A stretch of 13,709 bases of DNA from UHGV virus genome UHGV-0265340; one strand, given 5' to 3'. Position 1 is the stretch's first letter; the number at the start of each line of letters is the position of its first letter. Position numbers and translations under genes: made by a program. Below the pieces are notes generated by a model that was not told the DNA's origin, made no database searches, and worked only from the letters and a program-made list of their open reading frames with translations. Origin of the DNA: a virus. Positions 1 to 13,337 of the stretch are shown here, one piece after another.

Positions 1-155
1 TCGCTTAGGCATGGAAGTTTTGCGGCATTCTGGCTACACAATAACAAGGGAAGACTCACTCGTGGCTGCAACCCTGCTTACTCAAAATCTATTCACACAT
101 GGTTACGTTTTGGGGAAATTATGAGGGGATCTCTCAGTGCTTCGTCGCTGTCGTC

Positions 156-566
156 TCATTCGTACCTCCTGTCGGTAAATCTGACACCCTGATCCACGGC
201 CCAGGATGTTGTGTACTCAATCAGGCTTGCCATACGCTTCACGCTCATTTGCGCACTGCTTTCGCGGATATTGACGTATTCACCTTCAAGACCTGGCAAA
301 ACATCAGCTTCCTGTTTTGTCGCCACGGCATGACCGCTGATTAACAAAACTTTCCACTGTTCTGGTTTTAGCCACCTGCCGCACCACTTAACCTGGCGGG
401 ATATATCAGCGACCATCGCGTGAAATTTTGCATTTTGAGCGAGATTACGCTTGTAATCGGTGATACGGATCGTAACGGGTTTGTCTTTATCAAGAGTTGT
501 TGCAAGGATGGCGTTAATGGCGAATTGTTGCTGCTGCTTACTTCGGAGGAAGATAGTCTGGTTCAT
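156..566 (-). CDS. ninB: NinB (Orf-family) recombination protein
   Basis: 136-aa ORF; translation runs colinear with lambda NinB as recalled (core ...DQN.K..A...D.SRQV.W.GRWL...); last gene of the minus-strand early operon in the window; stop overlaps the ATG of a short downstream ORF (ATGA at 156-159). Confidence 0.88.
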   Translation of the reverse strand: MNQTIFLRSKQQQQFAINAILATTLDKDKPVTIRITDYKRNLAQNAKFHAMVADISRQVKWCGRWLKPEQWKVLLISGHAVATKQEADVLPGLEGEYVNIRESSAQMSVKRMASLIEYTTSWAVDQGVRFTDRRYE

Positions 567-620
567 TATTCCCTCTCACTGGATTTTCCCAACAAAAAAG
601 GAGCCGAAGCTCCTTTAGTT

Positions 621-1313
621 TCAGAATTCAAATTGTCTTGCCCGCAGGCTTTTCAGCATTGGCGTGGCCCGCTGGATAACGGAACTTGACATGTCGAGAC
701 GTGTTACCTCCCTTAGTAGCGCGTCTCTGTTCTTCGTCACCATGTAGATAGTCTCAAACGCAATGTCATACAGCTTGTTCGTGTATGAGGAGTTCAGCTC
801 TTTCATTATGGGGTACAGCTGCTTGCTAAGGTCCTGGGCTTTTTCCATCCAGAGTTGCATGTAACAAAGGAGGATGATTTCCTCGGCTGTGAATTGTGGC
901 TGAATCTGCGGCTGCTGTTCGGTTGGTGCTGTTTTTCCCTGGCTGAAATAGCAGTCTTCCAGTTTTTCGAACACTTCCCACGCCTGATCGGTTTCTAGCA
1001 TTTTGGCGTGACGGGCTGCGCCTCGTTCTGTCCAGAGGATGAGGGAGCGGGCTTTCGGGGAAATTTGTAACCCTCTTAAAGATGGTTGCAAATTTTGTGA
1101 GTAGTTTAAAGCTACCCGCAAATTTTTCAGGGCATCGCCAGCCACTTTGAAAAAATGCTTTCCTTCAATAAAGCGCTCAGCATTTCTGGCGTAGTTATTT
1201 TGAATGTTCTTAACTTCAGCACCGTACAACTGCGCCAAAAGTTCGGTGGTAATAACAGGAATCTGGTTATGGGTGATCGGGGAGAGAGTTTCAACAGAGA
1301 TTTGAGTTGTCAT
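621..1313 (-). CDS. Roi/antirepressor-like phage DNA-binding protein (Bro-N/ORF6N-type N-terminus)
   Basis: 230-aa ORF with ATG at 1313 and SD-like GAGGG upstream; N-terminal segment (NYARNAERFIEGKHFFKV) resembles ORF6N/antirepressor N-domains; sits just upstream of ninB where lambdoid phages carry roi/ant-like genes. Family call is from recollection only. Confidence 0.7.
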   Translation of the reverse strand: MTTQISVETLSPITHNQIPVITTELLAQLYGAEVKNIQNNYARNAERFIEGKHFFKVAGDALKNLRVALNYSQNLQPSLRGLQISPKARSLILWTERGAARHAKMLETDQAWEVFEKLEDCYFSQGKTAPTEQQPQIQPQFTAEEIILLCYMQLWMEKAQDLSKQLYPIMKELNSSYTNKLYDIAFETIYMVTKNRDALLREVTRLDMSSSVIQRATPMLKSLRARQFEF

Positions 1314-1473
1314 AATGACGCCCTCGAGTGGTTTCTTAATAACTCACCACCGACGACGCCAATCGTCTGGTGGTGAACTGTGCAGGGTTGGCGTAACCGG
1401 GAAACCGACCGGCGCGGATCTCTCCGCCCCCACACAGCCCACCATAATTCAGATGTGCGCGTGCATACGACAA

Positions 1474-1496
1474 TAAAAAACACGCTCGCGGCGTGT
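1474..1496 (-). terminator. Intrinsic terminator on minus strand (tR2-like position)
   Basis: Minus strand reads ACACGC-CGCGA-GCGTGT followed by TTTTTT (plus-strand A-run 1475-1480, stem 1480-1485 / 1491-1496); lies between the cargo island and the antirepressor/ninB genes. Confidence 0.5.
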
Positions 1497-1594
1497 ATCT
1501 GTCGCGGTCTCTATCCAGGACGCCAATCCCGACGCCAGATTTTGCTGGCGTGCGGTGAATATAATCCCGGATACCTATTTTTGTCAAACAACCG

Positions 1595-1622
1595 TTGCGC
1601 ATTACACAACAGTCGCTATAAT
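1595..1622 (+). promoter_or_regulatory. Putative sigma70 promoter of higBA
   Basis: -35 TTGCGC (1595-1600), 16-bp spacer, perfect -10 TATAAT (1617-1622), about 28 bp upstream of the higB ATG. Confidence 0.4.
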
Positions 1623-1650
1623 GATTCGCGTAACGCAACAGGAAACAAGC

Positions 1651-1929
1651 ATGATAAAAAGCTGGAAACACAAAGGACTTCAACGTTTCTTTGAAACAGG
1701 AAATGCATCAGGCATAAATCCCAATCACGTTAAACGCCTGAGAACGCGCCTTCAGGTAATAGATCAAGCTGAAATCATTGATGATATTAACCTTGCCGGG
1801 TACAGGCTGCACCAGTTGCAGGGGGACAGATCCGATACATGGTCTGTCACCGTCTCCGGTAACTGGAGAATCACATTCGAGTTTCGGAACGGCGATGCTT
1901 ATATTCTTAACTACGAGGATTACCACTAA
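1651..1929 (+). CDS. higB: HigB toxin (RelE/ParE-fold mRNA interferase, plasmid-killer family)
   Basis: 92-aa ORF from ATG 1651 with SD AGGAAACA (1640-1647); near-colinear with Rts1/Proteus HigB as recalled (MIKSxKHKGL ... GNWRITFxFxNGDAYILNYEDYH); stop TAA overlaps the next ATG (TAATG 1927-1931); toxin-first order typical of higBA. Confidence 0.9.
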   Translation: MIKSWKHKGLQRFFETGNASGINPNHVKRLRTRLQVIDQAEIIDDINLAGYRLHQLQGDRSDTWSVTVSGNWRITFEFRNGDAYILNYEDYH

Positions 1930-2234
1930 TGGCGATGTTTAACCCCCCTCATCCCGGAGAAATTATTGCTGATATTCTGGAAGATCAGAATATTGGAATC
2001 AGGGAACTGGCAAGAGCGCTTGATGTCGCGCCTTCCACTGTTCAGCGACTGGTTTCAGGTAATGCGACAATATCTCCTGAAATGGCTGTTCGTCTCGCTG
2101 CTGTCCTGGGTGGAACTCCGTCTTCATGGATTCGTCTCCAGACGGCATGGAGCCTCGAAAAAGCGGAAAGAGAAGTTGACGTATCTCATCTCTCAACAAA
2201 ATACCGCCCGGCAGAAATTTCGCCTCATGCTTAA
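1929..2234 (+). CDS. higA: HigA antitoxin (XRE-family HTH)
   Basis: 101-aa ORF translationally coupled to higB; HTH segment IRELARALDVAPSTVQRLVSG; overall similarity to HigA antidote proteins (PHPGEII...LED motif at the N-terminus). Confidence 0.9.
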   Translation: MAMFNPPHPGEIIADILEDQNIGIRELARALDVAPSTVQRLVSGNATISPEMAVRLAAVLGGTPSSWIRLQTAWSLEKAEREVDVSHLSTKYRPAEISPHA

Positions 2235-2281
2235 CCACCGCGCCGTCATTCTGGCGGCGCTTTACCCCAGAGAAATATCAA

Positions 2282-2527
2282 TCACCGGATTACCACATCC
2301 CACTCCGGCTCCTGCCATCTCAAATCCGGTGAATCATTTCTCTCAGGAATAACCATTACGTCCTTTTCCCTTCGCTCCCTTTCTATCGCCATCACAGCCA
2401 ATGCTGTAACCATGATGTATTTTTGTTCGTCGGTTCCTGTTTCATAACGACGCATGAGGGTAAACTCGGGGCGATCAGTAACCTCAATGATTTCGTTAAT
2501 TTCTTTAATTTCGCGAGGAATATCCAT
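2282..2527 (-). CDS. Hypothetical small charged protein (81 aa), divergent from the DUF4145-like gene
   Basis: ATG at 2527 preceded on the minus strand by a strong SD (AAGGAGA, 8-nt spacing); translation is E/R-rich and protein-like; no recognisable family. Its start overlaps the plus-strand start at the CCATGG palindrome (2524-2529), so it may be spurious. Confidence 0.3.
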   Translation of the reverse strand: MDIPREIKEINEIIEVTDRPEFTLMRRYETGTDEQKYIMVTALAVMAIERERREKDVMVIPERNDSPDLRWQEPEWDVVIR

Positions 2528-3200
2528 GGGTTTAGTCTCCTTTGATATCACATGCCCGCACTGTTTAAAAGAGCGAGCTGTTATTGAGGCATTTGCCGAA
2601 AAACAAATTGAAAAAACACCTTTTTTTAACGTCGCTTTTGTATGCAGAAGTTGTCATCGAGGAGGTGTTGCTATTGTTGAAATCCCATCAGACCACTATC
2701 ACGGTCCCATGGCGGAAAGCCAGAAAAAAGACCTCGATATTCTGATTTCAGGAAATAGCCAGTACCGTTTCCGCAAGATCTATCCTGTGGTCAAAAAAAT
2801 TACCGCACCAGAATATACACCCCCGGTTGCAGACCGTACTTTTGTTGAGGCAAAAGAGGATTTACAGAGGAGGCGGTACGACACAGTGGTTATTCTTTGT
2901 CGCAGAGTCCTCGATATCTCCACGAAAAAACTGCTCGGCGATGAAGCAGGAAAAGAATCGCTGTCGCAACGTATTCAGATGATTTACAAAAAAGGCCTGA
3001 TCACTGAACAGATGAAGGAATGGGCTCATATTGTACGAATTGATGCCAATAAAGCAGTTCATACAGATGAAGTTTTCACACCAATTGAGGCAAGCCAGAT
3101 CCTGAGTTTTACCGAAATGTTTTTAGTCTACGCCTTCACTCTGCCTGCAATGGTGGAAGCCAGACGTGAACAAAAAAGATCAGATTCAGCCTCTATATGA
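2526..3200 (+). CDS. Zn-ribbon + DUF4145-like (putative HEPN-type) protein, candidate defence effector
   Basis: 224-aa ORF from ATG 2526 with SD GAGGAA (2515-2520); N-terminal CPHC (C10,C13) ... CRSC (C40,C43) zinc ribbon; C-terminal helical region with R171-x7-H179 (RIDANKAVH) matching the DUF4145 signature as I recall it. Confidence 0.85.
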   Translation: MGLVSFDITCPHCLKERAVIEAFAEKQIEKTPFFNVAFVCRSCHRGGVAIVEIPSDHYHGPMAESQKKDLDILISGNSQYRFRKIYPVVKKITAPEYTPPVADRTFVEAKEDLQRRRYDTVVILCRRVLDISTKKLLGDEAGKESLSQRIQMIYKKGLITEQMKEWAHIVRIDANKAVHTDEVFTPIEASQILSFTEMFLVYAFTLPAMVEARREQKRSDSASI

Positions 3201-3222
3201 ATCACTTTTCTGAACACGTAAG

Positions 3223-3244
3223 CCCCCGTCATTCACGACGGGGA
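3223..3244. other. Perfect 8-bp stem hairpin between convergent genes
   Basis: CCCCCGTC (3223-3230), loop ATTCAC, GACGGGGG (3237-3244); no U-tract on either strand, so at most a weak bidirectional terminator or RNA-stability element; overlaps the stop of the 3233-3664 gene. Confidence 0.4.
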
Positions 3245-3664
3245 GAACATCAATCCCTCTGCACTCCCTCGCCAGAATGCCAGCACACGCTGCATCGTTT
3301 CGCTGTTACGGCACTCGCGACAAATTGTGTTGTAGCGTCTGTCGTAGCGCCGTATTTCCCCATCTGGTAATGCCCGGATAAGGTCTGGATCAACGACAAC
3401 CGGTTTCTTCGACTTTGCCCTTGAGAGTTTTTTGCGGGCATTTTGCCAGTCCTTACGAGCCTGTTCAGACGGGAATACTCCGTAACCGGAATTGTAAACA
3501 TCACCACTGGCGGCCAGCTCCATGCATAAACGACCGACAGACGCATGACTGACACCAATTTCATCCGATAACTGCCGAATCGTGCCTCGTCCGTTAAGGC
3601 GTACGAATTCCACGATCAGCCCCTTAATTTTTTCCCGCTCTTCTGGTGTAAATGCTCTTGTCAT
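3233..3664 (-). CDS. Hypothetical prophage protein with winged-helix-like N-terminus
   Basis: 143-aa ORF from ATG 3664 (GGAG SD region 3675-3678; alternative GTG at 3670); HTH-like TIRQLSDEIGVSHASVGRLCMELAASGDV; part of the minus-strand early operon downstream of the replication genes. Confidence 0.7.
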   Translation of the reverse strand: MTRAFTPEEREKIKGLIVEFVRLNGRGTIRQLSDEIGVSHASVGRLCMELAASGDVYNSGYGVFPSEQARKDWQNARKKLSRAKSKKPVVVDPDLIRALPDGEIRRYDRRYNTICRECRNSETMQRVLAFWRGSAEGLMFSPS

Positions 3665-3679
3665 AAGCACCTCCGGAGA

Positions 3680-4429
3680 TCACTTTGTTGTCGGTGAATG
3701 AACCGGAATATCAGCAATCGAACTGAAAATATCCCGGTGTTTATTCAGCTCCCGCAGCGCGGCGCAGACTCGCTCCCACTTCTGAACATCACTTTTCGCC
3801 CTGCGCAGGGACGGAAAAATCAGCTCATCTGCTTGCGTTTCGGTAAACGATGGCAACGACTGCACAATGTCCGCCACAGTTTCTGTTTTAATTTCTTCCT
3901 GTGTTGCGGCTTCCCGGACTGGTAACGCAGCACCTGCTGGCTGAGGAAAGGCCTTACCATCATTTTCCGTTACCGGCGCGGTTTTCGGATCTGCTGGTAA
4001 ATTACCCCCCGGCATGCAGTAACGAAATTTACCGTTCTGATTAACGCGTGCCAGCCGCCCCGTTGCGGTTACCACCGCCAGCGTGGAAGCAACCTTGCGA
4101 GTGGTAACTCCGAACTTACCCGCTATTTCTTCACAGGTTTTAGCCCCCTCCTGAGAGATAAACTCAATCATCATGTCAGCGCTAACTTTTGGAGCGACCT
4201 CTTCGGTCAGCATATCCTGTGTTTCAGATTTTACTGGCCGCTCTTCGGTTACCCGGGATTCACCTTCGACAGCCAGAAACCAGGTGTGACCCGTTTTATC
4301 AACAACGCCATTTTTTTTGAGTTCCCACAGTTCGTTGAGAACTTCTTCACGGCTGATATCAAGCCGCGCCGCCAGTTCAACAGAATTGGCTTTTCCCATC
4401 GCTTTCAGTGCATGCAATACGGTTTCCAT
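3680..4429 (-). CDS. Hypothetical prophage DNA-binding protein (winged-helix N-terminus, acidic C-terminus)
   Basis: 249-aa ORF; ATG at 4429; follows the dnaC-like gene with a 25-bp gap; N-terminal wHTH-like segment SVELAARLDISREEVLNELWELKKNGVV; internal second HTH-like segment. Confidence 0.75.
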   Translation of the reverse strand: METVLHALKAMGKANSVELAARLDISREEVLNELWELKKNGVVDKTGHTWFLAVEGESRVTEERPVKSETQDMLTEEVAPKVSADMMIEFISQEGAKTCEEIAGKFGVTTRKVASTLAVVTATGRLARVNQNGKFRYCMPGGNLPADPKTAPVTENDGKAFPQPAGAALPVREAATQEEIKTETVADIVQSLPSFTETQADELIFPSLRRAKSDVQKWERVCAALRELNKHRDIFSSIADIPVHSPTTK

Positions 4430-4454
4430 CGAAAATTTACCTCGTCAAAAATTC

Positions 4455-5195
4455 TCACATACCCTGACGTCCAACGTTTGACCGCCAGCTCTCCCAGTTA
4501 AAATTCACCCAACGACCACCGTTCATGGTCATCCGGTCCATAATCCTCTCACCAAGAAGCGTGCTCATTGCGGCATGATTCAGGTTTGTCAGCATCCCGA
4601 CACTGCGCAGTGATGCCGTCCGGCGGTCAACAATCTGGTGCAGTACCACCTGCTCGTTTTTCGTCTCACGCTGGATGCCAATTTCGTCAAGAACCAGGAG
4701 GTCCACTTCGCACAGTTCACGCAAAAATTTTTCCCCTGACAGTCCGTCGTCATAGCTGGCATGTAACGCGCTCATCACATCCGCCACGGTGACCACTATC
4801 ACGGATTTACCGGCCTTCAGCAGACGATTACCCACAGCCGCCGCCAGATGATTTTTTCCGGTTCCCGGATTCCCGCTGAACACGAAGTTTGTACACCCGG
4901 TCATCAATTCATCGGCAATGGATTTCGCCTGGCTCAGAGCATGGCGCTGACCGTCGTTCTGCACCCGGTAGTTCCCGAATGAGCACTTCCTGTGAAGCGG
5001 CTGGATGCCCGCACGGTTCAGGATTTTTTCAACCCGCGCCTGATGATTCAGGCGGTTAATTTCCTCGCTGCGCTTACGGCCCTCAGCCAGTTGCCATTCC
5101 CGCCATTCGTCGGTCGTCCGGAACGGTGCTGCCACGTGCGGTGGTGCCAGACGGCGCACCCGTTCAAGAATCCCTCCTGTCGAAATGTTTTTCAT
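4455..5195 (-). CDS. DnaC-like replicative helicase loader (AAA+)
   Basis: 246-aa ORF colinear with E. coli DnaC as recalled: MKN... start, Walker A GNPGTGKNHLAAA, Walker B DLLVLDEIG, MLTNLN motif, C-terminal ...WVNFNWESWRS; SD AGGGGG upstream. Confidence 0.92.
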   Translation of the reverse strand: MKNISTGGILERVRRLAPPHVAAPFRTTDEWREWQLAEGRKRSEEINRLNHQARVEKILNRAGIQPLHRKCSFGNYRVQNDGQRHALSQAKSIADELMTGCTNFVFSGNPGTGKNHLAAAVGNRLLKAGKSVIVVTVADVMSALHASYDDGLSGEKFLRELCEVDLLVLDEIGIQRETKNEQVVLHQIVDRRTASLRSVGMLTNLNHAAMSTLLGERIMDRMTMNGGRWVNFNWESWRSNVGRQGM

Positions 5196-5201
5196 GGCTG
5201 A

Positions 5202-6278
5202 TTACCCCCTGAAACCCGGCGGAATTTCGGTGTCCGGTTCAGAAATGTGATTCACGCAACGCAGGCTGACTGCGCCAGCCTTCGGCAGCGACCACGGATT
5301 TTCGAAATTCCTGTTCGGGCCAAAAAACGTCGATGCCTGCTGAACAAATTCAGTTCCCGCTTTCCCGGTAGCCTCCAGGTATCTTGCGTAACGCCTCACG
5401 CCATCCAGCACGACATCCGGTGACACCCCTTCGCGTAATCTGGCCCTCCAGGCATTGAACGCGGATTTCTTCGGGTTTGACCCTGCCCGATGCGGATATT
5501 CACGCCAGACCCGTTCGAACACGTCAGGATAATCAACTCGTCCCGCAGACGGTCCCGGCATCGCCCGGGTTAACCCAATCGGCTTCCCGCTCATCGCGGA
5601 ATCGGCTTCAGGCTGCTGCGGTTGGCGTTGTTGCTCCGGTTCGACGATCAGCACCTGCTGCACACAACGCCCGGAATCTGCTTCCGGTGTCGTGCCAGCT
5701 GGTCCTGGACGTTCAGTCAGAACAGGACAAAAATCCCCCTGCGGGTCCGTGGCGATTTTTTCGCCATGGACCAGAAGGGTTTTATCCCTTTCCTGTTCTT
5801 GTTCCTGTTCTTGGCTTGAAAGGGGCTCTGAAGGGGCTTCAATTTTCCGACATGATTCACGTCTGACATCCAGGTGGAAATCATCCTTATATCTATCATA
5901 AAAGGATGATAAAAAAGGATTTTCCAGCAACACGGAATATTCATTTCTTACCCCAGCACAACGGTTATCGCCAGGTTTCAGCGATTCACCAACCTGCCAT
6001 GCTGCCATTTCATGCACCCATACAACCTCAGAATCATGGTCATAGCTGCAAAAACCAGCCTCGCAAGCCATTTGAAGCCCCTTAGAAGCCCCTTCAGGAT
6101 CAAGTCCGGTTTCGTGAGCAATGTACAAAACAGGCAGGTAATAAAGGCCCAGCATATTGGAATGAGGCGAGGTCATCATATACAACGCCACTACCATACA
6201 TTCCGGACCAGACTTCCTTAGTTTTCTCCCTGTTTCGCCTAACCAGAACTGAGGTGAAATTGTTGCGTAATTACGCAT
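5202..6278 (-). CDS. Phage replication protein with DnaT-like C-terminal domain
   Basis: 358-aa ORF with SD GAGGGG; C-terminus ends ...SEPDTEIPPGFRG, paralleling the C-terminus of primosomal protein DnaT as recalled; stop lies 7 bp before the dnaC-like start; contains low-complexity EQEQEQ and one copy of the upstream ~60-bp repeat. Confidence 0.85.
   Translation of the reverse strand: MRNYATISPQFWLGETGRKLRKSGPECMVVALYMMTSPHSNMLGLYYLPVLYIAHETGLDPEGASKGLQMACEAGFCSYDHDSEVVWVHEMAAWQVGESLKPGDNRCAGVRNEYSVLLENPFLSSFYDRYKDDFHLDVRRESCRKIEAPSEPLSSQEQEQEQERDKTLLVHGEKIATDPQGDFCPVLTERPGPAGTTPEADSGRCVQQVLIVEPEQQRQPQQPEADSAMSGKPIGLTRAMPGPSAGRVDYPDVFERVWREYPHRAGSNPKKSAFNAWRARLREGVSPDVVLDGVRRYARYLEATGKAGTEFVQQASTFFGPNRNFENPWSLPKAGAVSLRCVNHISEPDTEIPPGFRG
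5546..5640. repeat. Diverged third copy of the ~60-bp repeat, inside the replication gene
   Basis: CAGACGGTCCCGGCATCGCCCGGGTTAACCCAATCGGCTTC...AGGCTGCTGCGGTTGGCGTTGTTGCTCCGG matches the two copies at 6312-6472 apart from an internal 23-bp insertion. Confidence 0.8.
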
Positions 6279-6311
6279 AGTCCCCTCGCATACAAGATTT
6301 ACTCCATACCG

Positions 6312-6472
6312 CAGACGGTCCCGGTATCTCCCGGGTTAACCCAATCGGCTTCAGGCTGCTGCGGTTGGTGTGACTGCACATTGGTGTGACTGCACATCTT
6401 CACAGACGGTCCCGGTATCTCCGGGTTAACCCAATCGGCTTCAGGCTGCTGCGGTTGGTGTTGTTGCTGGCG
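6312..6472. repeat. Two direct copies of a ~59-bp repeat (91-bp period) plus an embedded 16-bp tandem duplication
   Basis: Copies at 6312-6370 and 6403-6460 (CAGACGGTCCCGGTATCTC(C)CGGGTTAACCCAATCGGCTTCAGGCTGCTGCGGTTGGTG); TTGGTGTGACTGCACA duplicated in tandem at 6365-6396; located between the cII-like gene and the replication gene. Confidence 0.85.
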
Positions 6473-6531
6473 AAATTCTTCCAGATGTGGCAGAATTATT
6501 CCCGTGTATTGCTCCATGCCCTGCCTGAATA

Positions 6532-6828
6532 TCAGATATTCATCAGGATTTGCTCAGAACGTCCGGCCCCAACCGGACGTTTTTTATTTGCATGAACGTT
6601 AATGGCATGCTGGAAAGCCCGGCTGATCGGACTGATATCAGATGCCATCTGGAACGCGCATAAAATCGCCGCGATGTATCGCCAGTCGGTACGACTGATC
6701 TTCGATTCATGGCAGCCAATCATCTTTGCCAGTCCCCTTTGCGTCAGAGCTGACAGGTTGATAAGTAAATCCGTTTCAGCGCGATCGATATCGCGCTGTG
6801 ATAGTTTGCTGTAACTTGTTTGTGACAT
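6532..6828 (-). CDS. cII: CII-like transcriptional activator
   Basis: 98-aa ORF; C-terminus ...NKKRPVGAGRSEQILMNI parallels lambda CII ...NKKRPAATERSEQIQMEF as recalled; central HTH; canonical position between the cro-like and replication genes. Confidence 0.85.
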   Translation of the reverse strand: MSQTSYSKLSQRDIDRAETDLLINLSALTQRGLAKMIGCHESKISRTDWRYIAAILCAFQMASDISPISRAFQHAINVHANKKRPVGAGRSEQILMNI

Positions 6829-6913
6829 TTCTTATGATTCCAAATAGTGAATAGTTAGTTGAAAGGTATGCGTGGAAACGCATATGGCCTTAGTAGGTCA
6901 GATATCTTGGGGC

Positions 6914-6959
6914 TCGCTTTTCAGCGACGTAGGACGAATGTCCATTGTGAAAAGAGCAG
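6914..6959 (-). promoter_or_regulatory. nutR-like site (boxA, small hairpin, boxB)
   Basis: Minus strand reads boxA-like CTGCTCTTTTC (6959-6949), hairpin GGAC-ATTC-GTCC, then boxB-like TCGC-TGAAAA-GCGA (6927-6914); same architecture and loop as the nutL candidate at 8305-8350. Confidence 0.5.
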
Positions 6960-6971
6960 TGTTAATTGAGC

Positions 6972-7211
6972 TTATCGTTGACGATCAGGATTCGCTACAT
7001 TGCGTAACCATTCGGCGGTAAATTTGCCATCAGATGCATTGGCGAGAATTTCCGAATAGTTGGTTTTCATCGTGTATTCGGTGCGAGGTAACGCTCCGTT
7101 TTTAACCCACTTATGAATTGCAACATTTGACAACCCGCATAAACGGGCAGCGACTGTTTGACCACCAACAGCTTTTACTGCGAATTGTATCGGATTCATA
7201 CTGCTATCCAT
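6972..7211 (-). CDS. cro: Cro-like HTH repressor
   Basis: 79-aa ORF (75 aa if translation starts at ATG 7199, which has a weak GGA SD); HTH QTVAARLCGLSNVAIHKWV; divergent from the cI-like gene across the operator region; pR-like -35 TTGACA on the minus strand (7263-7258). Confidence 0.8.
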   Translation of the reverse strand: MDSSMNPIQFAVKAVGGQTVAARLCGLSNVAIHKWVKNGALPRTEYTMKTNYSEILANASDGKFTAEWLRNVANPDRQR

Positions 7212-7283
7212 TAATTTAATTAACTTCGAGTTAATGTTAACTATTAGCTGACAGTTATGTCAACTATGTTTGATAATTAACGT
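7212..7283. promoter_or_regulatory. oR-like operator region with divergent pR and pRM
   Basis: Perfect palindrome TTAACTTCGAGTTAA (7220-7234) plus further TTAACT/AGTTAA-type inverted repeats (7236-7265); minus-strand pR -35 TTGACA (7263-7258) and -10 TAACAT (7239-7234); plus-strand pRM -35 CTGACA (7248-7253) and -10 GATAAT (7272-7277) ending 6 bp before the cI ATG, implying a leaderless cI mRNA as in lambda. Confidence 0.7.
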
Positions 7284-8054
7284 ATGGTTAAAAAAGATGA
7301 ACTAAAAGAAGCGTTCTCAAAGAGACTACTACAGGCATTATTAGATGCAGGTGTGGGCGGACGCGGTCAGGCTAAGCGGATTCAGAATGCAATGAAACTG
7401 CGAGGCATTGATATCTCTGAACCGGGGATCTGGAAATGGCTTAATTCTGCATCAATTCCAGAAAAAACAAGTATTTTGGCACTTAGTGACTGGCTTTCCG
7501 TGAAGCCGGAGTGGTTGGAGTATGGCAGTAACGAGCCATCCGTAAAACAGCGACCTTCTATTCCAAACGAATCAGAATGGGGTTCCCTTGAAACTTGGGA
7601 CAGAAATACACAACTACGAGATGATGAAGTTGAGGTGCCATATCTGAAAGACATTGAGTTTGCATGCGGTGACGGAAGAGTTCATTGCGAAGATCATAAT
7701 GGTTTTAAATTACGCTTCTCAAAAGCAACCCTGCGCCGTGTCGGAGCTAACAGTGATGGTTCTGGTGTGCTTTGTTTTCCGGCTACTGGTGATAGCATGG
7801 AACCCGTGATACCAGATGGAACAACAATCGCAGTAGACACAAACAACAAACGTATTGTTGACGGCAAACTCTACGCCATCGCACAGCCTGGTGTCGGTGA
7901 TGAAAAACTGAAGCGTATAAAGCTATTGTACAGACGCCCCGGTGGAAAACTAATCATACGCAGTTATAACAGTGAAGAGTACCCTGACGAAGAAGCAGAT
8001 ACTCAAAGCGTGGAGATTATCGGAAAAGTTTTCTGGTATTCAGTTCTGCTTTAG
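7284..8054 (+). CDS. cI: CI-type prophage repressor (HTH + LexA-like S24 autopeptidase domain)
   Basis: 256-aa ORF; C-terminal S24 motifs (GDSMEP, downstream catalytic Lys region KLKRIK); N-terminal DNA-binding region; no SD, start directly downstream of the -10 (leaderless). Confidence 0.92.
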   Translation: MVKKDELKEAFSKRLLQALLDAGVGGRGQAKRIQNAMKLRGIDISEPGIWKWLNSASIPEKTSILALSDWLSVKPEWLEYGSNEPSVKQRPSIPNESEWGSLETWDRNTQLRDDEVEVPYLKDIEFACGDGRVHCEDHNGFKLRFSKATLRRVGANSDGSGVLCFPATGDSMEPVIPDGTTIAVDTNNKRIVDGKLYAIAQPGVGDEKLKRIKLLYRRPGGKLIIRSYNSEEYPDEEADTQSVEIIGKVFWYSVLL

Positions 8055-8060
8055 CCCTCT

Positions 8061-8087
8061 CCCCCGGCCTCAGAGCCGGGTTTTTTA
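8061..8087 (+). terminator. Intrinsic terminator after cI
   Basis: Stem CCCGGC (8063-8068) / GCCGGG (8075-8080), 6-nt loop, followed by TTTTTT (8081-8086), 7 bp after the cI stop. Confidence 0.75.
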
Positions 8088-8215
8088 TTAACCCAGCTAG
8101 CCAAAACTCATCTATCCTAGCTTCTATACCCCTTCATACTTGATAACCGTCGCTCACCGAACAAGCAATAATAATTAACTAAAAATCAAAAACATAGAAT
8201 TTCCCCACAATAATT

Positions 8216-8258: not shown

Positions 8259-8304
8259 CATTTTACCAACAGGTCACCGATAACAACGCGGTCCCAATTG
8301 GAAA

Positions 8305-8350
8305 GCTCTTTAAACAACGTCGAACACTCGACTACGTGGCTGAAAAGCCA
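8305..8350 (+). promoter_or_regulatory. nutL-like site (boxA, small hairpin, boxB)
   Basis: boxA-like GCTCTTTAAACAA (8305-8317); hairpin GTCGA-ACAC-TCGAC (8319-8332); boxB-like TGGC-TGAAAA-GCCA (8337-8350); about 100 nt upstream of the N-like ATG. Confidence 0.55.
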
Positions 8351-8450
8351 GATCACCCAACCACATAAGCTGTGGGATGCAATGCTGAAGCAACCGTCTC
8401 AGGGGGTGGCTTCGAGACTGCATCACCAGAGTTTATTCGGAGAGAAGTCT

Positions 8451-8723
8451 ATGTCCAGAAAGACAGAATTTAAAGGAACCGCAACTTCCCGCCGCAGAGC
8501 ACACCGGGCTGAGCTTCAGAGTCTGGAGGCATCAAGCGCTGATAAACTGCACCGCCCCACGCCTTCACGGGTGTACTTACAGTGCAAGCGCAAAGCCGCA
8601 ATGCGAGCTGAAGTAGTCACGATAACGACATTAACCAGAAAATATGAAGGCTCCACTTGTCTTCCAAACACTGCACTTTACGCAGCTGGCTATCGCAAAT
8701 CCGGAACAATAACAGCGAGGTGA
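8451..8723 (+). CDS. N: N-like transcription antiterminator (P22 gp24 / lambda N family)
   Basis: 90-aa ORF from ATG 8451 (SD GGAGAGA 8439-8445); arginine-rich motif TSRRRAHRAELQ resembling the lambda N ARM (QTRRRERRAEKQ); C-terminus LPNTALYAAGYRKSGTITAR parallels P22 gp24 as recalled; matching nut sites on both operons. Confidence 0.8.
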   Translation: MSRKTEFKGTATSRRRAHRAELQSLEASSADKLHRPTPSRVYLQCKRKAAMRAEVVTITTLTRKYEGSTCLPNTALYAAGYRKSGTITAR

Positions 8724-11264: not shown

Positions 11265-13337
11265 ATGAGCGCTGATAAACAGACTTTTGCACTACACTGC
11301 GAAGCAAAAAACGATAAAGTCAGAAAACGCCTTGGCATCAAAGGCGGTTTTTTCTGGACCGAGGCCAGAAAACTTTCTGTCGCAGTTTCCCGCTGCATTG
11401 CAGCCATGGACGATGCAGGCTACGACGAGGATGATTTCAAAAAACCCGTTCGCGTAAATTTCCCCGTCGTGAATGACCTTCCACCGGAAGGCGTGTTTGA
11501 TACTGAATTCTGCAACCGCTATGAAAAAGGCGGTAACGATGGCATCACCATGATGGCTATCCCCTTCGATGACAACATCAACGGTGAAGATGCCACAACT
11601 GCTGGCGATGACAACGATAACCTGGACGGAACTATTCCGGATGATGTGGAGAAAAGCGAATCCCCGGACAGCGACGATGACTGTTCTGAGTGTGAAATTC
11701 CCGTCGCCACTCTGAGCCTTACTCATCGCTTCCTTCACCTCTTCTTATTCAGCAAAGATGAAGATGGAAAATACCGGCATCATGCCACACCAGAACAACG
11801 CAATAACGTGATCCGTATGGAGATGGACACAGAGGACAGTTACCTTCAGAGCCTGCTTACTGCTGTGCGCGCCGCGCATCATGAACTGGATAAACTGACG
11901 AACTATCACCTTAGTCGCCTGGCTGAATCTGTAGGGAAAGCATTCCCCCACTCTGCAAATCATCGCATCAGCCCGGCTGAATTCGACAAGTTCATTTCCA
12001 CCTGGATGAAAACTGACTACCTTGATCAGGGCCTGCTGACAAAAGAATGGCAGAACGGAAATTATGTTTCAGGCATTACCCGTACGCCTTCCGGTGCTAA
12101 CGCTGGCGGCGGAAATATTACCGATCGTGGTGAAGGATTCAAACATGATAAGACATCACTCGCACGAGATGTAGCCACCGGCGTTCTGGCCCGTTCAATG
12201 GATGTGGATATTTATAACCTGCACCCAGCACACGCAAAACGCGTTGAAGAAATCGTGTCAGAGAATAAGCCGCCCTTTTCTGTTTTTCGCGACAAATTTA
12301 TCGCCATGCCCGGTGGGCTGGATTATTCCCGCGCCATTGTGGTGGCTTCCGTGAAAGAAGCACCAATCGGCATTGAGGCCATCCCGGCACGCGTGACTGA
12401 ATATCTCAACAAAGTGTTGACCGAAACCGATCACGCTAACCCGGATCCGGAAATCGTGGAAATTGCCTGCGGTCGCTCATCAGCACCGATGCCGCAGCGC
12501 GGAACAGCAGAAGGAAAACATGGCGATGAAGAAAAGCAACAAGCATCGGACACAATGGCTAATGAACAGGCAGCGCCTGAATCAGTGGAAGAAATTCCAG
12601 TTAAACATAATGAGGACACGCAATCACTGGAAAATGTCTCATCTGTAGAAACGAAATACCAGGAACTGAGGGAGGAACTCAATAAAGCCAGGGAAAACAT
12701 CCCCCCAAAAAATCCAGTCGATGCCGACAAATTACTGGCTGCCTCGCGTGGAGAATTCGTTGAAGGCATCAGTAACCCTGCTGATCCGAAGTGGGTGAAG
12801 GGGATCCAGACTCGCGACACTGAGGACCAGAATCAGTCCAAAGTGGAACAAATTGCCCCAGAAGCGGGACAAAACAGCCCGGATACGCAACAAAACGGGC
12901 CAGAAGAGCAACAGCCAGGGCCAGTAGCGCAACCGGAGCTGGAAAAAAACTGCCGCGTCTGTGGTCAGACTGGCGGGGGTAACTGCCCTGACTGTAGTGC
13001 GGTAATGGGCGATAGCACTTACACAGAAACTTTTGGAGAAAATGACGCCGCTGATGGAGAAGACTCAGCACAAACTGAGGAGAAGATCATTCAGGAAAAC
13101 TCTGTTGATGCCGCTCAGGAGGGCGAAACCGTTGTTCAGAACGAGCCAGGCAGTGATACGTCCGGCGATGACGCCAATTCTGAGCCAGTAACTCTCGACT
13201 GGAAAAGACAGCTCGTGATTGCCGCCGTCTATGGTTTGTGCGCCAACCCCGCATGTATAGCCACAGCGCCAGCAATCCCTGATATCGCCATCATGATTGC
13301 CAACAGGCTTGAAAATTTCGGAGGTGATAAATCATGA
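11265..13337 (+). CDS. Large acidic protein resembling the non-catalytic N-terminal region of RecE (exonuclease VIII) family prophage proteins; nuclease domain apparently absent
   Basis: 690-aa ORF from ATG 11265 (GAGG 11251-11254); D/E-rich low-complexity stretches; CRVCGQ...CPDC motif; segments such as NFPVVNDLP and [16 protein letters not shown]...[16 protein letters not shown]...[10 protein letters not shown]...[12 protein letters not shown] match my recollection of the Rac RecE N-terminal region (unverified); stop overlaps the gam ATG (ATGA 13334-13337). Confidence 0.8.

Follow-up and report, generated by a model that had tools for sequence, protein, structure and literature searches.

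Why does a lambdoid prophage carry, between cII and its replication gene, two repeats that recur within the replication gene itself? The question is raised by virus genome UHGV-0265340, of which a stretch of 13,709 nt (hereafter, the window) was analyzed, comprising the immunity and replication region of the prophage. Two units of about 60 bp, A and B, lie between cII and rep, the gene of the replication initiator Rep, and a third copy, C, lies inside rep (Table 1). The original prediction, made from the window alone, offered two accounts of these repeats: iteron-like origin repeats comparable to lambda ori inside O, or a scar left when partial duplication or recombination split an ancestral initiator gene. 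We find that the upstream units are probably non-essential, unstable paralogues of the DNA encoding the Rep linker, forming a minisatellite on the left border of the replication module. An origin for this module is more likely to lie inside rep, where two inverted pairs of 11-bp-phased AAGGGGCTT motifs flanking an A+T-rich stretch make up a candidate origin.

Copies of linker-coding DNA ahead of rep

Both the near-identical copies and the 16-bp tandem duplication between them were present in the window as had been predicted. Units A and B are 100% identical over 41 nt in a repeat search (6331–6371 vs 6421–6461), and the sole difference between 6312–6341 and 6403–6432 is one missing G. Because unit A lacks this base, the period is 90–91 nt, where 91 had been noted. 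The 16-bp duplication is exact (6365–6380 and 6381–6396), and the 3′ part of the 16-mer, GTCACACCAAC, matches the linker allele of initiators of the Tritos/L011 type. Copy C matches the units at 5543–5591 (92% over 49 nt) and at 5588–5628, and differs from them, at 92–97% identity, by 23 extra nt bounded by the direct repeat GAAGCCGATT, that is, an internal GAAGCCGATT...GAAGCCGATT duplication. Matches of units A and B to copy C range from 92% to 100%, the 92% over 49 nt being that of unit B.

In an AlphaFold2 model of Rep built on 31 homologues, an N-domain (residues 4–146; predicted local distance difference test score, pLDDT, 82–93) is followed by a linker predicted to be disordered (residues 147–247, pLDDT <50) and by a confidently modelled helical C-domain (residues 248–335), copy C coding for the end of the linker just before the latter. 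PHROG matches split Rep alike, with N-domain families covering residues 1–166 or 1–186 and C-module families covering 159–358, 205–358 or 246–335. The C-domain is widespread among phage initiators of Escherichia, Salmonella, Klebsiella, Burkholderia and Vibrio, and the linker is kept only among close relatives. A 24-nt linker indel bounded by GAAGCCGAT, whose counterpart in the window is the 23-nt segment, is polymorphic between Tritos and locus L004 (the replisome organizer gene of E. coli OkiPb01711), and the linker DNA is thus slippage-prone in other initiators as well. Because the linker is disordered in the model and tolerates a compensated frameshift and 24-nt indels, we regard it as repeat-prone DNA under weak constraint; judged from the sequences compared, it is barely constrained at the protein level.

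The relationship between the units and copy C is seen in the changes that they share. Compared with Tritos-type and L011-type linkers, copy C has a 1-nt deletion and a 1-nt insertion (−1/+1), which together make up a compensated frameshift altering ~19 codons, and the upstream units carry the same two 1-nt indels. These shared derived indels place the copying or homogenization within this lineage. A variant fixed across all copies within each genome was also identified: all four copies at locus L003 (strain 23CRST049), whose flanking genes are 96–100% identical to those of the window, read CCTGATGCCGAT (GATGCC), and all three in the window read CCTGAAGCCGAT (GAAGCC). The number of units is variable. 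One unit was found in L002 (strain 05-3629), L006 and the IMG/VR loci L094, L097, L109 and L110; two in the window and about 30 contigs; and three in L003 and protein cluster P0001 (102 aa, 25 contigs). At L003 every unit includes the 23-nt segment, so that the period is 113, and the distinction between non-terminal and terminal units is the same as in the window; across alleles the units measure 59–84 bp. Copies of the 16-mer range from two to five, five being implied by cluster P0002 (88 aa). Finally, at locus L001 (E. coli SW071611, NZ_CM129855.1, 2563–2974; three wastewater isolates), the 766 bp between an upstream unit and copy C have been lost. This deletion is the product of recombination between the two, and it leaves rep as a frameshifted fragment without the N-domain, annotated as a pseudogene, with the candidate origin also gone. 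Deletion of the N-domain and candidate origin between direct repeats shows how simply such a prophage can lose its ability to replicate.

The upstream copies have a narrow distribution. Matches between the DNA upstream of rep and the linker are confined to loci with a Rep at least 96% identical. In Rep homologues at 68–71% identity (L011–L020), as in those with more distant N-domains, no such match was found within 600 bp upstream of rep, and in C-module relatives with other N-domains the linker is present only within the gene. No upstream linker copies were found in any other lineage among the homologues compared. Relatives with a ~81% identical cII have a lambda-type O gene that begins 32 nt after cII, and the post-cII segment of the window is identical to that of ev017 at 24 of 32 collinear positions, a score reached by 2 of 1000 shuffles; the position of the former O start codon reads CTG in the window. 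Since this similarity to the cII–O junction stops near 6485, ~15 bp before unit A, the array would mark the left end of the incoming rep–dnaC module. In a search of IMG/VR for other settings of the post-cII segment, every match was linked to the array. The prediction of a duplication or recombination scar was thus right in part: the units are linker paralogues that share the indels of copy C and start ~15 bp past the junction similarity, and it is the form involving a split initiator that found no support.

These observations suggest a course of events. The rep–dnaC module would have replaced a lambda-type O–P module beside cII, and the units probably arose then. Unequal crossing-over or slippage would since have altered the number of 90/113-bp units (one to three) and of 16-bp junction units (two to five), gene conversion would keep the upstream units and copy C alike, and crossing-over between an upstream unit and copy C would delete the 766 bp that hold the DNA-binding domain of the initiator and the candidate origin. 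As for how old the copies are, the 5′ flank of the internal unit, GCAGTCACACCAAC, is nearer to the Tritos/L011 linker allele GCAATCACACCAAC than to copy C of the window, which hints, at the level of sequence, at an older copy of the linker. A gapped alignment with the upstream part of the linker suggests that the inter-unit junction derives from it by deletions; this reading was set aside, only the ~14 nt of GCAGTCACACCAAC being convincing. A scan of genome contigs with the 18-nt pattern CAGCAGCCTGANGCCGAT (17 specified bases) was likewise discarded as too unspecific, giving chance matches in unrelated phyla.

With head-to-tail units of polymorphic copy number, paralogy with shared derived changes and a recombination product, the locus has the features of a minisatellite or duplication scar. 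It resembles minisatellites, other variable number tandem repeat (VNTR) loci and the duplication scars of mosaic lambdoid phages in its head-to-tail units, copy-number polymorphism, concerted evolution and deletions between dispersed copies. It differs from them in its source, coding DNA of the disordered linker of the neighboring gene, so that conversion and crossing-over in turn affect a gene essential to the phage. The repeats are nothing out of the ordinary, an unstable side product of the mosaic evolution of phages, and the array is a ready VNTR marker.

Several observations could weigh against copies without function. Each unit holds a perfect 10-bp palindrome, GGGTTAACCC, which could bind a protein, and which is not kept in Tritos/L011 linkers. 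With exactly 90 nt, the non-terminal unit amounts to 30 codons, and in most alleles the small reading frame stays open to within 25 nt of the rep start or overlaps it; both might be signs of translation or coupling. At least one upstream unit is kept in every genome with this rep allele, which could mean selection; the lineage is so young (at least 98% identity) that linkage alone explains the retention. Taken together, readings that give the units a function have a low probability of being correct.

The 72-residue reading frame

The predicted 72-residue open reading frame (ORF72) on the minus strand, reading through both units after cII, exists. It had been proposed to be a 5′ remnant of a split ancestral initiator gene. 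In a search of 5.8 billion proteins, no longer protein shared its N-terminus MEQYTGIILPHLEEF, which was found only in small E. coli ORFs of varying length and frame, and no homologue had a single initiator ORF spanning 6517–5202. The homologues of ORF72 fall into ten clusters, all from E. coli, with lengths of 42, 46, 51, 58, 62, 72, 76, 88 and 102 aa and with C-termini in three frames (...GDTGTVCGME, ...AVWSKSCMRGDYA and ...RRYRDRL). At L003 the frame stops within the first unit. Neither frame nor length is thus kept as in a conserved coding gene, homologues do not extend past one lineage, and no Pfam or NCBIfam match was obtained. Most likely, ORF72 exists only as a consequence of the repeats and is not a conserved gene; it would be an accidental reading frame over the units. 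The repeats explain why annotation pipelines report a 'hypothetical protein' (PHROG 2751) across this family of prophages.

A real small protein or leader is an unlikely alternative, in which one or more linker motifs QPQQPEAD would serve as a decoy for a partner of the Rep linker, or in which ORF72 would be an upstream ORF translationally coupled to rep. It could draw on an AGG 6 nt ahead of the ATG, on a PHROG of its own, on most alleles ending 25 nt before the rep ATG or overlapping it, and on unit A corresponding to exactly 30 codons, with the observed expansion of the 16-mer (+48 nt) in frame. The first 28 residues are moreover constant in all ten clusters except for single-residue substitutions. 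These 28 codons lie in the only stretch of the spacer without repeats, where an oop-like antisense RNA has its start region, which is conserved for other reasons. Also against a protein are the range of lengths, the three C-terminal frames, the early stop at L003 and the confinement to one young E. coli prophage lineage.

A slim chance remains that the array is not neutral in one of two ways: the QPQQPEAD peptide, in one to three copies, tunes the assembly of initiator and loader or is coupled to rep translation, or the repeats are a switch that excises an origin-specificity cassette and grounds the prophage. Copy number would then be a heritable, fast-mutating control on the replication of a Shiga-toxin phage family.

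Candidate origin and the remaining alternatives

Iterons are several short (about 10–22 bp) direct repeats in helical phase with an adjacent A+T-rich unwinding region, and lambda ori, which lies within O, has four 19-bp iterons and an A+T-rich region between the two domains of O. The 60-bp units are of another kind. They measure 59–84 bp with a period of 90 or 113 bp and are present in one to three copies, the G+C content of 6320–6469 is 0.55–0.62, and no A+T-rich stretch adjoins them, the nearest being 5870–5960, inside rep. Nor are they conserved together with the DNA-binding domain of the initiator, as they are absent in L011–L020 and in more distant homologues. The prediction of iteron-like repeats at the units is therefore not supported.

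It is very unlikely that the units are nonetheless iterons or auxiliary initiator sites, serving titration or autoregulation of Rep, with copy C as the ori proper. Copy C does occupy the relative position of lambda ori, in the linker-coding part of an initiator gene, the units do hold the short repeat GAAGCCGATT and the 10-bp palindrome, and at least one upstream unit is always kept in the lineage. Against this stand, besides the length, period, G+C content and varying number of the units, their absence upstream of homologues at 68–71% identity and the lack of conservation of the palindrome in Tritos/L011 linkers. In addition, GAAGCCGAT goes with the C-module, even where the N-domains are unrelated and have GTCAC iterons of their own (Tritos, L004), and does not go with the DNA-binding N-domain. 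The GGGGCTT motifs described below are a far better candidate.

Other signals were sought in and around the units. An Rfam scan of 4400–8200 (E ≤1) gave no match, no DnaA boxes were found near the region, and a promoter scan revealed no consensus promoter in the units. No CII-type TTGC-N6-TTGC sites were found in the units, the only relevant match being 6806–6819. The sense transcript of the cII–rep spacer folds no better than shuffled sequences (z = −0.43), and the antisense fold has z = −2.69, the stretch concerned (6279–6600) taking in the oop-like terminator hairpin.

The GGGGCTT motifs lie elsewhere, inside rep. A motif survey was made of 80 IMG/VR loci coding for Rep relatives; their N-domains comprise 67 distinct sequences, the most divergent at ~50% identity, and many of the proteins have unrelated C-termini. 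GGGGCT(T) occurs twice, 11 bp apart, at gene nt ~186/197 (site 1) in 65 of the 67 sequences, and two to three times with the same spacing at gene nt ~430–475 (site 2), again in 65 of 67. The background elsewhere in the surveyed loci is 0.3 per kb, and 17 sequences have extra copies just ahead of the start codon (−60 to −1). Site 2 is in + orientation in 12 sequences, in − orientation in 46 and mixed in 7, and the encoded peptide alternates between EGASKGL-like and EAPSKPL-like while the DNA motif stays. As the motif is kept in either orientation, the DNA and not the peptide is conserved at site 2. This conservation of AAGGGGCTT in either orientation in 65 of 67 homologues is DNA-level evidence and directly testable. 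A minimum of G+C at gene nt 340–400 is kept across the 67 homologues; in the window, G+C is 0.33 at 5870–5929, between the two candidate sites. The AAGGGGCTT motifs are accordingly found as short phased repeats with an adjacent A+T-rich region, and are conserved together with the DNA-binding domain. Based on these features, we infer that they may function as the origin.

The candidate has the layout for which the prediction drew on lambda ori, an origin inside the initiator gene, and lies within the interval reported there, but it is made up of other repeats, the GGGGCTT motifs. In common with lambda ori and O are a two-domain initiator with a flexible middle, repeats inside the gene, an exchangeable N-domain and a cII/oop neighborhood. 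The 60-bp units, mostly outside the gene, are not iterons by definition, and in place of four tandem 19-mers there are 9–11-bp repeats in two inverted pairs ~230 bp apart (5820–6094). Rep is unrelated to lambda O in sequence and has no Pfam match. Nearer relatives are the 'phage replisome organizer' initiators of the Rac/Tritos type, which share the linker and C-module (~82% DNA identity), the DnaT-like tail and iterons inside the gene, and which differ in their N-domain, in having GTCAC(G) iterons and in lacking upstream linker copies.

Fagerlund et al. named this replication region 'Eru4', with Shigella phage 75/02 Stx as type phage, and stated that nothing is known of the proteins that replicate Eru phages (PMC8951638). 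The words 'iteron' and 'repeat' are absent from the main text of that classification paper (PMC8951638), as are 'iteron', 'origin of replication' and 'repeat' from the main text of another Eru paper. Of more use than the repeats themselves are the negative result for the 60-bp units as iterons and, with it, the specific candidate origin that can be named for the Eru4-type module of Stx1 phages (75/02 Stx, POCJ13).

Two further accounts of the repeats were weighed. Selection of the direct linker repeats as homologous joints, for exchange or excision of a cassette of N-domain and origin between lambdoid phages, would agree with the ~82% DNA identity of linker and C-module among initiators with different N-domains, with the array lying exactly at the left boundary of the module and with the existence of the predicted excision product (L001). 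Yet the one product seen is a dead gene with a frameshift, no case was found in which the N-domain between the repeats had been replaced, the arrangement is confined to a single lineage, and a scar needs no selection for evolvability; we consider this account highly improbable. An assembly artefact, by collapse or expansion of the repeats, has nothing in its favor beyond the general risk that repeats pose to assembly and can be dismissed, because the 253-bp cII–rep spacer is the same in 76 closed E. coli genomes (at least 99% identity) from many laboratories and platforms, in the independently sequenced phages POCJ13, 75/02 Stx, PhiR5_2 and phiSTEC1589-Stx1c, and in 33 IMG/VR contigs.

Rep tail, relatives and neighboring features

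The third repeat copy had been placed in a linker before a DnaT-like domain, and it is in the linker. 'DnaT-like domain' is only partly right, since the similarity to DnaT is confined to the last ~25 residues, ISEPDTEIPPGFRG (E 1e-3 to 9e-3); no DnaT match was obtained for the rest of the C-domain. The tail VNHISEPDTEIPPGFRG (residues ~334–358, 5202–5276) differs little from the end of E. coli DnaT (PDB 2ru8, 6aep, 9zbt), also known as primosomal protein I; over the ~25 C-terminal residues the two have nearly the same pattern (VNxxSEPDxxIPPGFRG). This likeness suggests that the phage initiator mimics the DnaT tail, possibly to engage the helicase-loading machinery of the host. The GenBank label 'primosomal protein I' for rep rests on the tail only. 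A PHROG 'primosomal protein' match covers residues 240–327 (E 5e-13), and a Foldseek search of the PDB with the Rep model gave only weak winged-helix-like matches (E ≥0.14).

Two other repeats within initiator genes were observed. A (GAACAG)n/12-bp tandem repeat at 5790–5813, right after candidate iteron site 2, codes for a SQEQEQEQ hinge that is kept in nearly all homologues. Its length varies in close relatives, where the matching segment is 1801, 1807 or 1813 bp, and longer EQ runs occur in L007 and L009. In L004, positions 1992–2300, in the N-terminal half of a Rac/Tritos-type initiator gene, are dense in GTCAC(G) with a period of ~10 bp; these are probably the iterons of that initiator type.

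The cII–rep–dnaC segment of the window is 97.5–98.7% identical to Shigella phages 75/02 Stx and POCJ13 and Escherichia phages PhiR5_2 and phiSTEC1589-Stx1c. At least 80% of it is covered by a single place in 75 complete E. coli genomes, the best-matching of which are 98.3–99.6% identical.

Table 1. Features of the window discussed in the text, in descending order of position
Feature	Position	Strand	Remarks
Exonuclease VIII-like gene	11265–13337	+	
N	8298–8723	+	
cI	7284–8054	+	
cro-like gene	6972–7211	−	
cII	6532–6828	−	Left neighbor of the repeat array; Pfam Phage_CII, E 2e-26
Oop-like intrinsic terminator	6556–6583	+	Antisense to the cII 3′ end; 11-bp stem, then T run
Unique spacer after cII	6462–6531	−	Putative remnant of a lambda-type cII–O junction; oop-like RNA start region
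ORF72 (72 aa)	6299–6517	−	PHROG 2751; reads through both units; ATG 14 nt past the cII stop
Unit A, non-terminal, 59 nt	6403–6461	−	One G missing (cccgg-agata); paralogue of Rep linker-coding DNA
16-bp tandem duplication	6365–6396	−	Inter-unit junction; two copies of TTGGTGTGACTGCACA on the + strand
Unit B, terminal, 60 nt	6312–6371	−	Ends 33 nt ahead of the rep start codon
rep	5202–6278	−	Replication initiator/replisome organiser, 358 aa; phrog_1701, E 1e-149
Candidate iteron site 1	6072–6094	−	Two AAGGGGCTT, 11-bp period; in N-domain coding sequence (EGASKGL)
A+T-rich stretch	5870–5960		Candidate unwinding element; G+C 0.33–0.38; inverted repeat ATCATCCTTATAT/ATAAAAGGATGAT inside
Candidate iteron site 2	5820–5842	+	Two AAGGGGCT(T/C), opposite strand; N-domain/linker boundary
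Copy C	5543–5636	−	Source-like, inside rep; encodes Rep residues ~215–246
DnaC/IstB-like helicase loader gene	4455–5195	−	Second gene of the module; IstB_IS21, E 8e-20
DUF1627, DUF977 and DUF4145 genes, antirepressor-like gene, NinB			Also in the window

The oop-like terminator in the 3′ end of cII has the same placement in lambda; no convincing po-like promoter for an oop-like RNA was identified in the window. Between the cro-like gene and cII, on the minus strand, a boxA-like TGCTCTTT (~6951–6958) and a boxB-like hairpin TCGCTGAAAAGCGA (~6914–6927) together resemble nutR. The match at 6806–6819 (+), TTGCTGTAACTTGT, resembles the repeat TTGC-N6-TTGC except for one mismatch and lies antisense where cII has its first codons; it is pRE-like and lies in the same place as the CII-binding site of lambda pRE.

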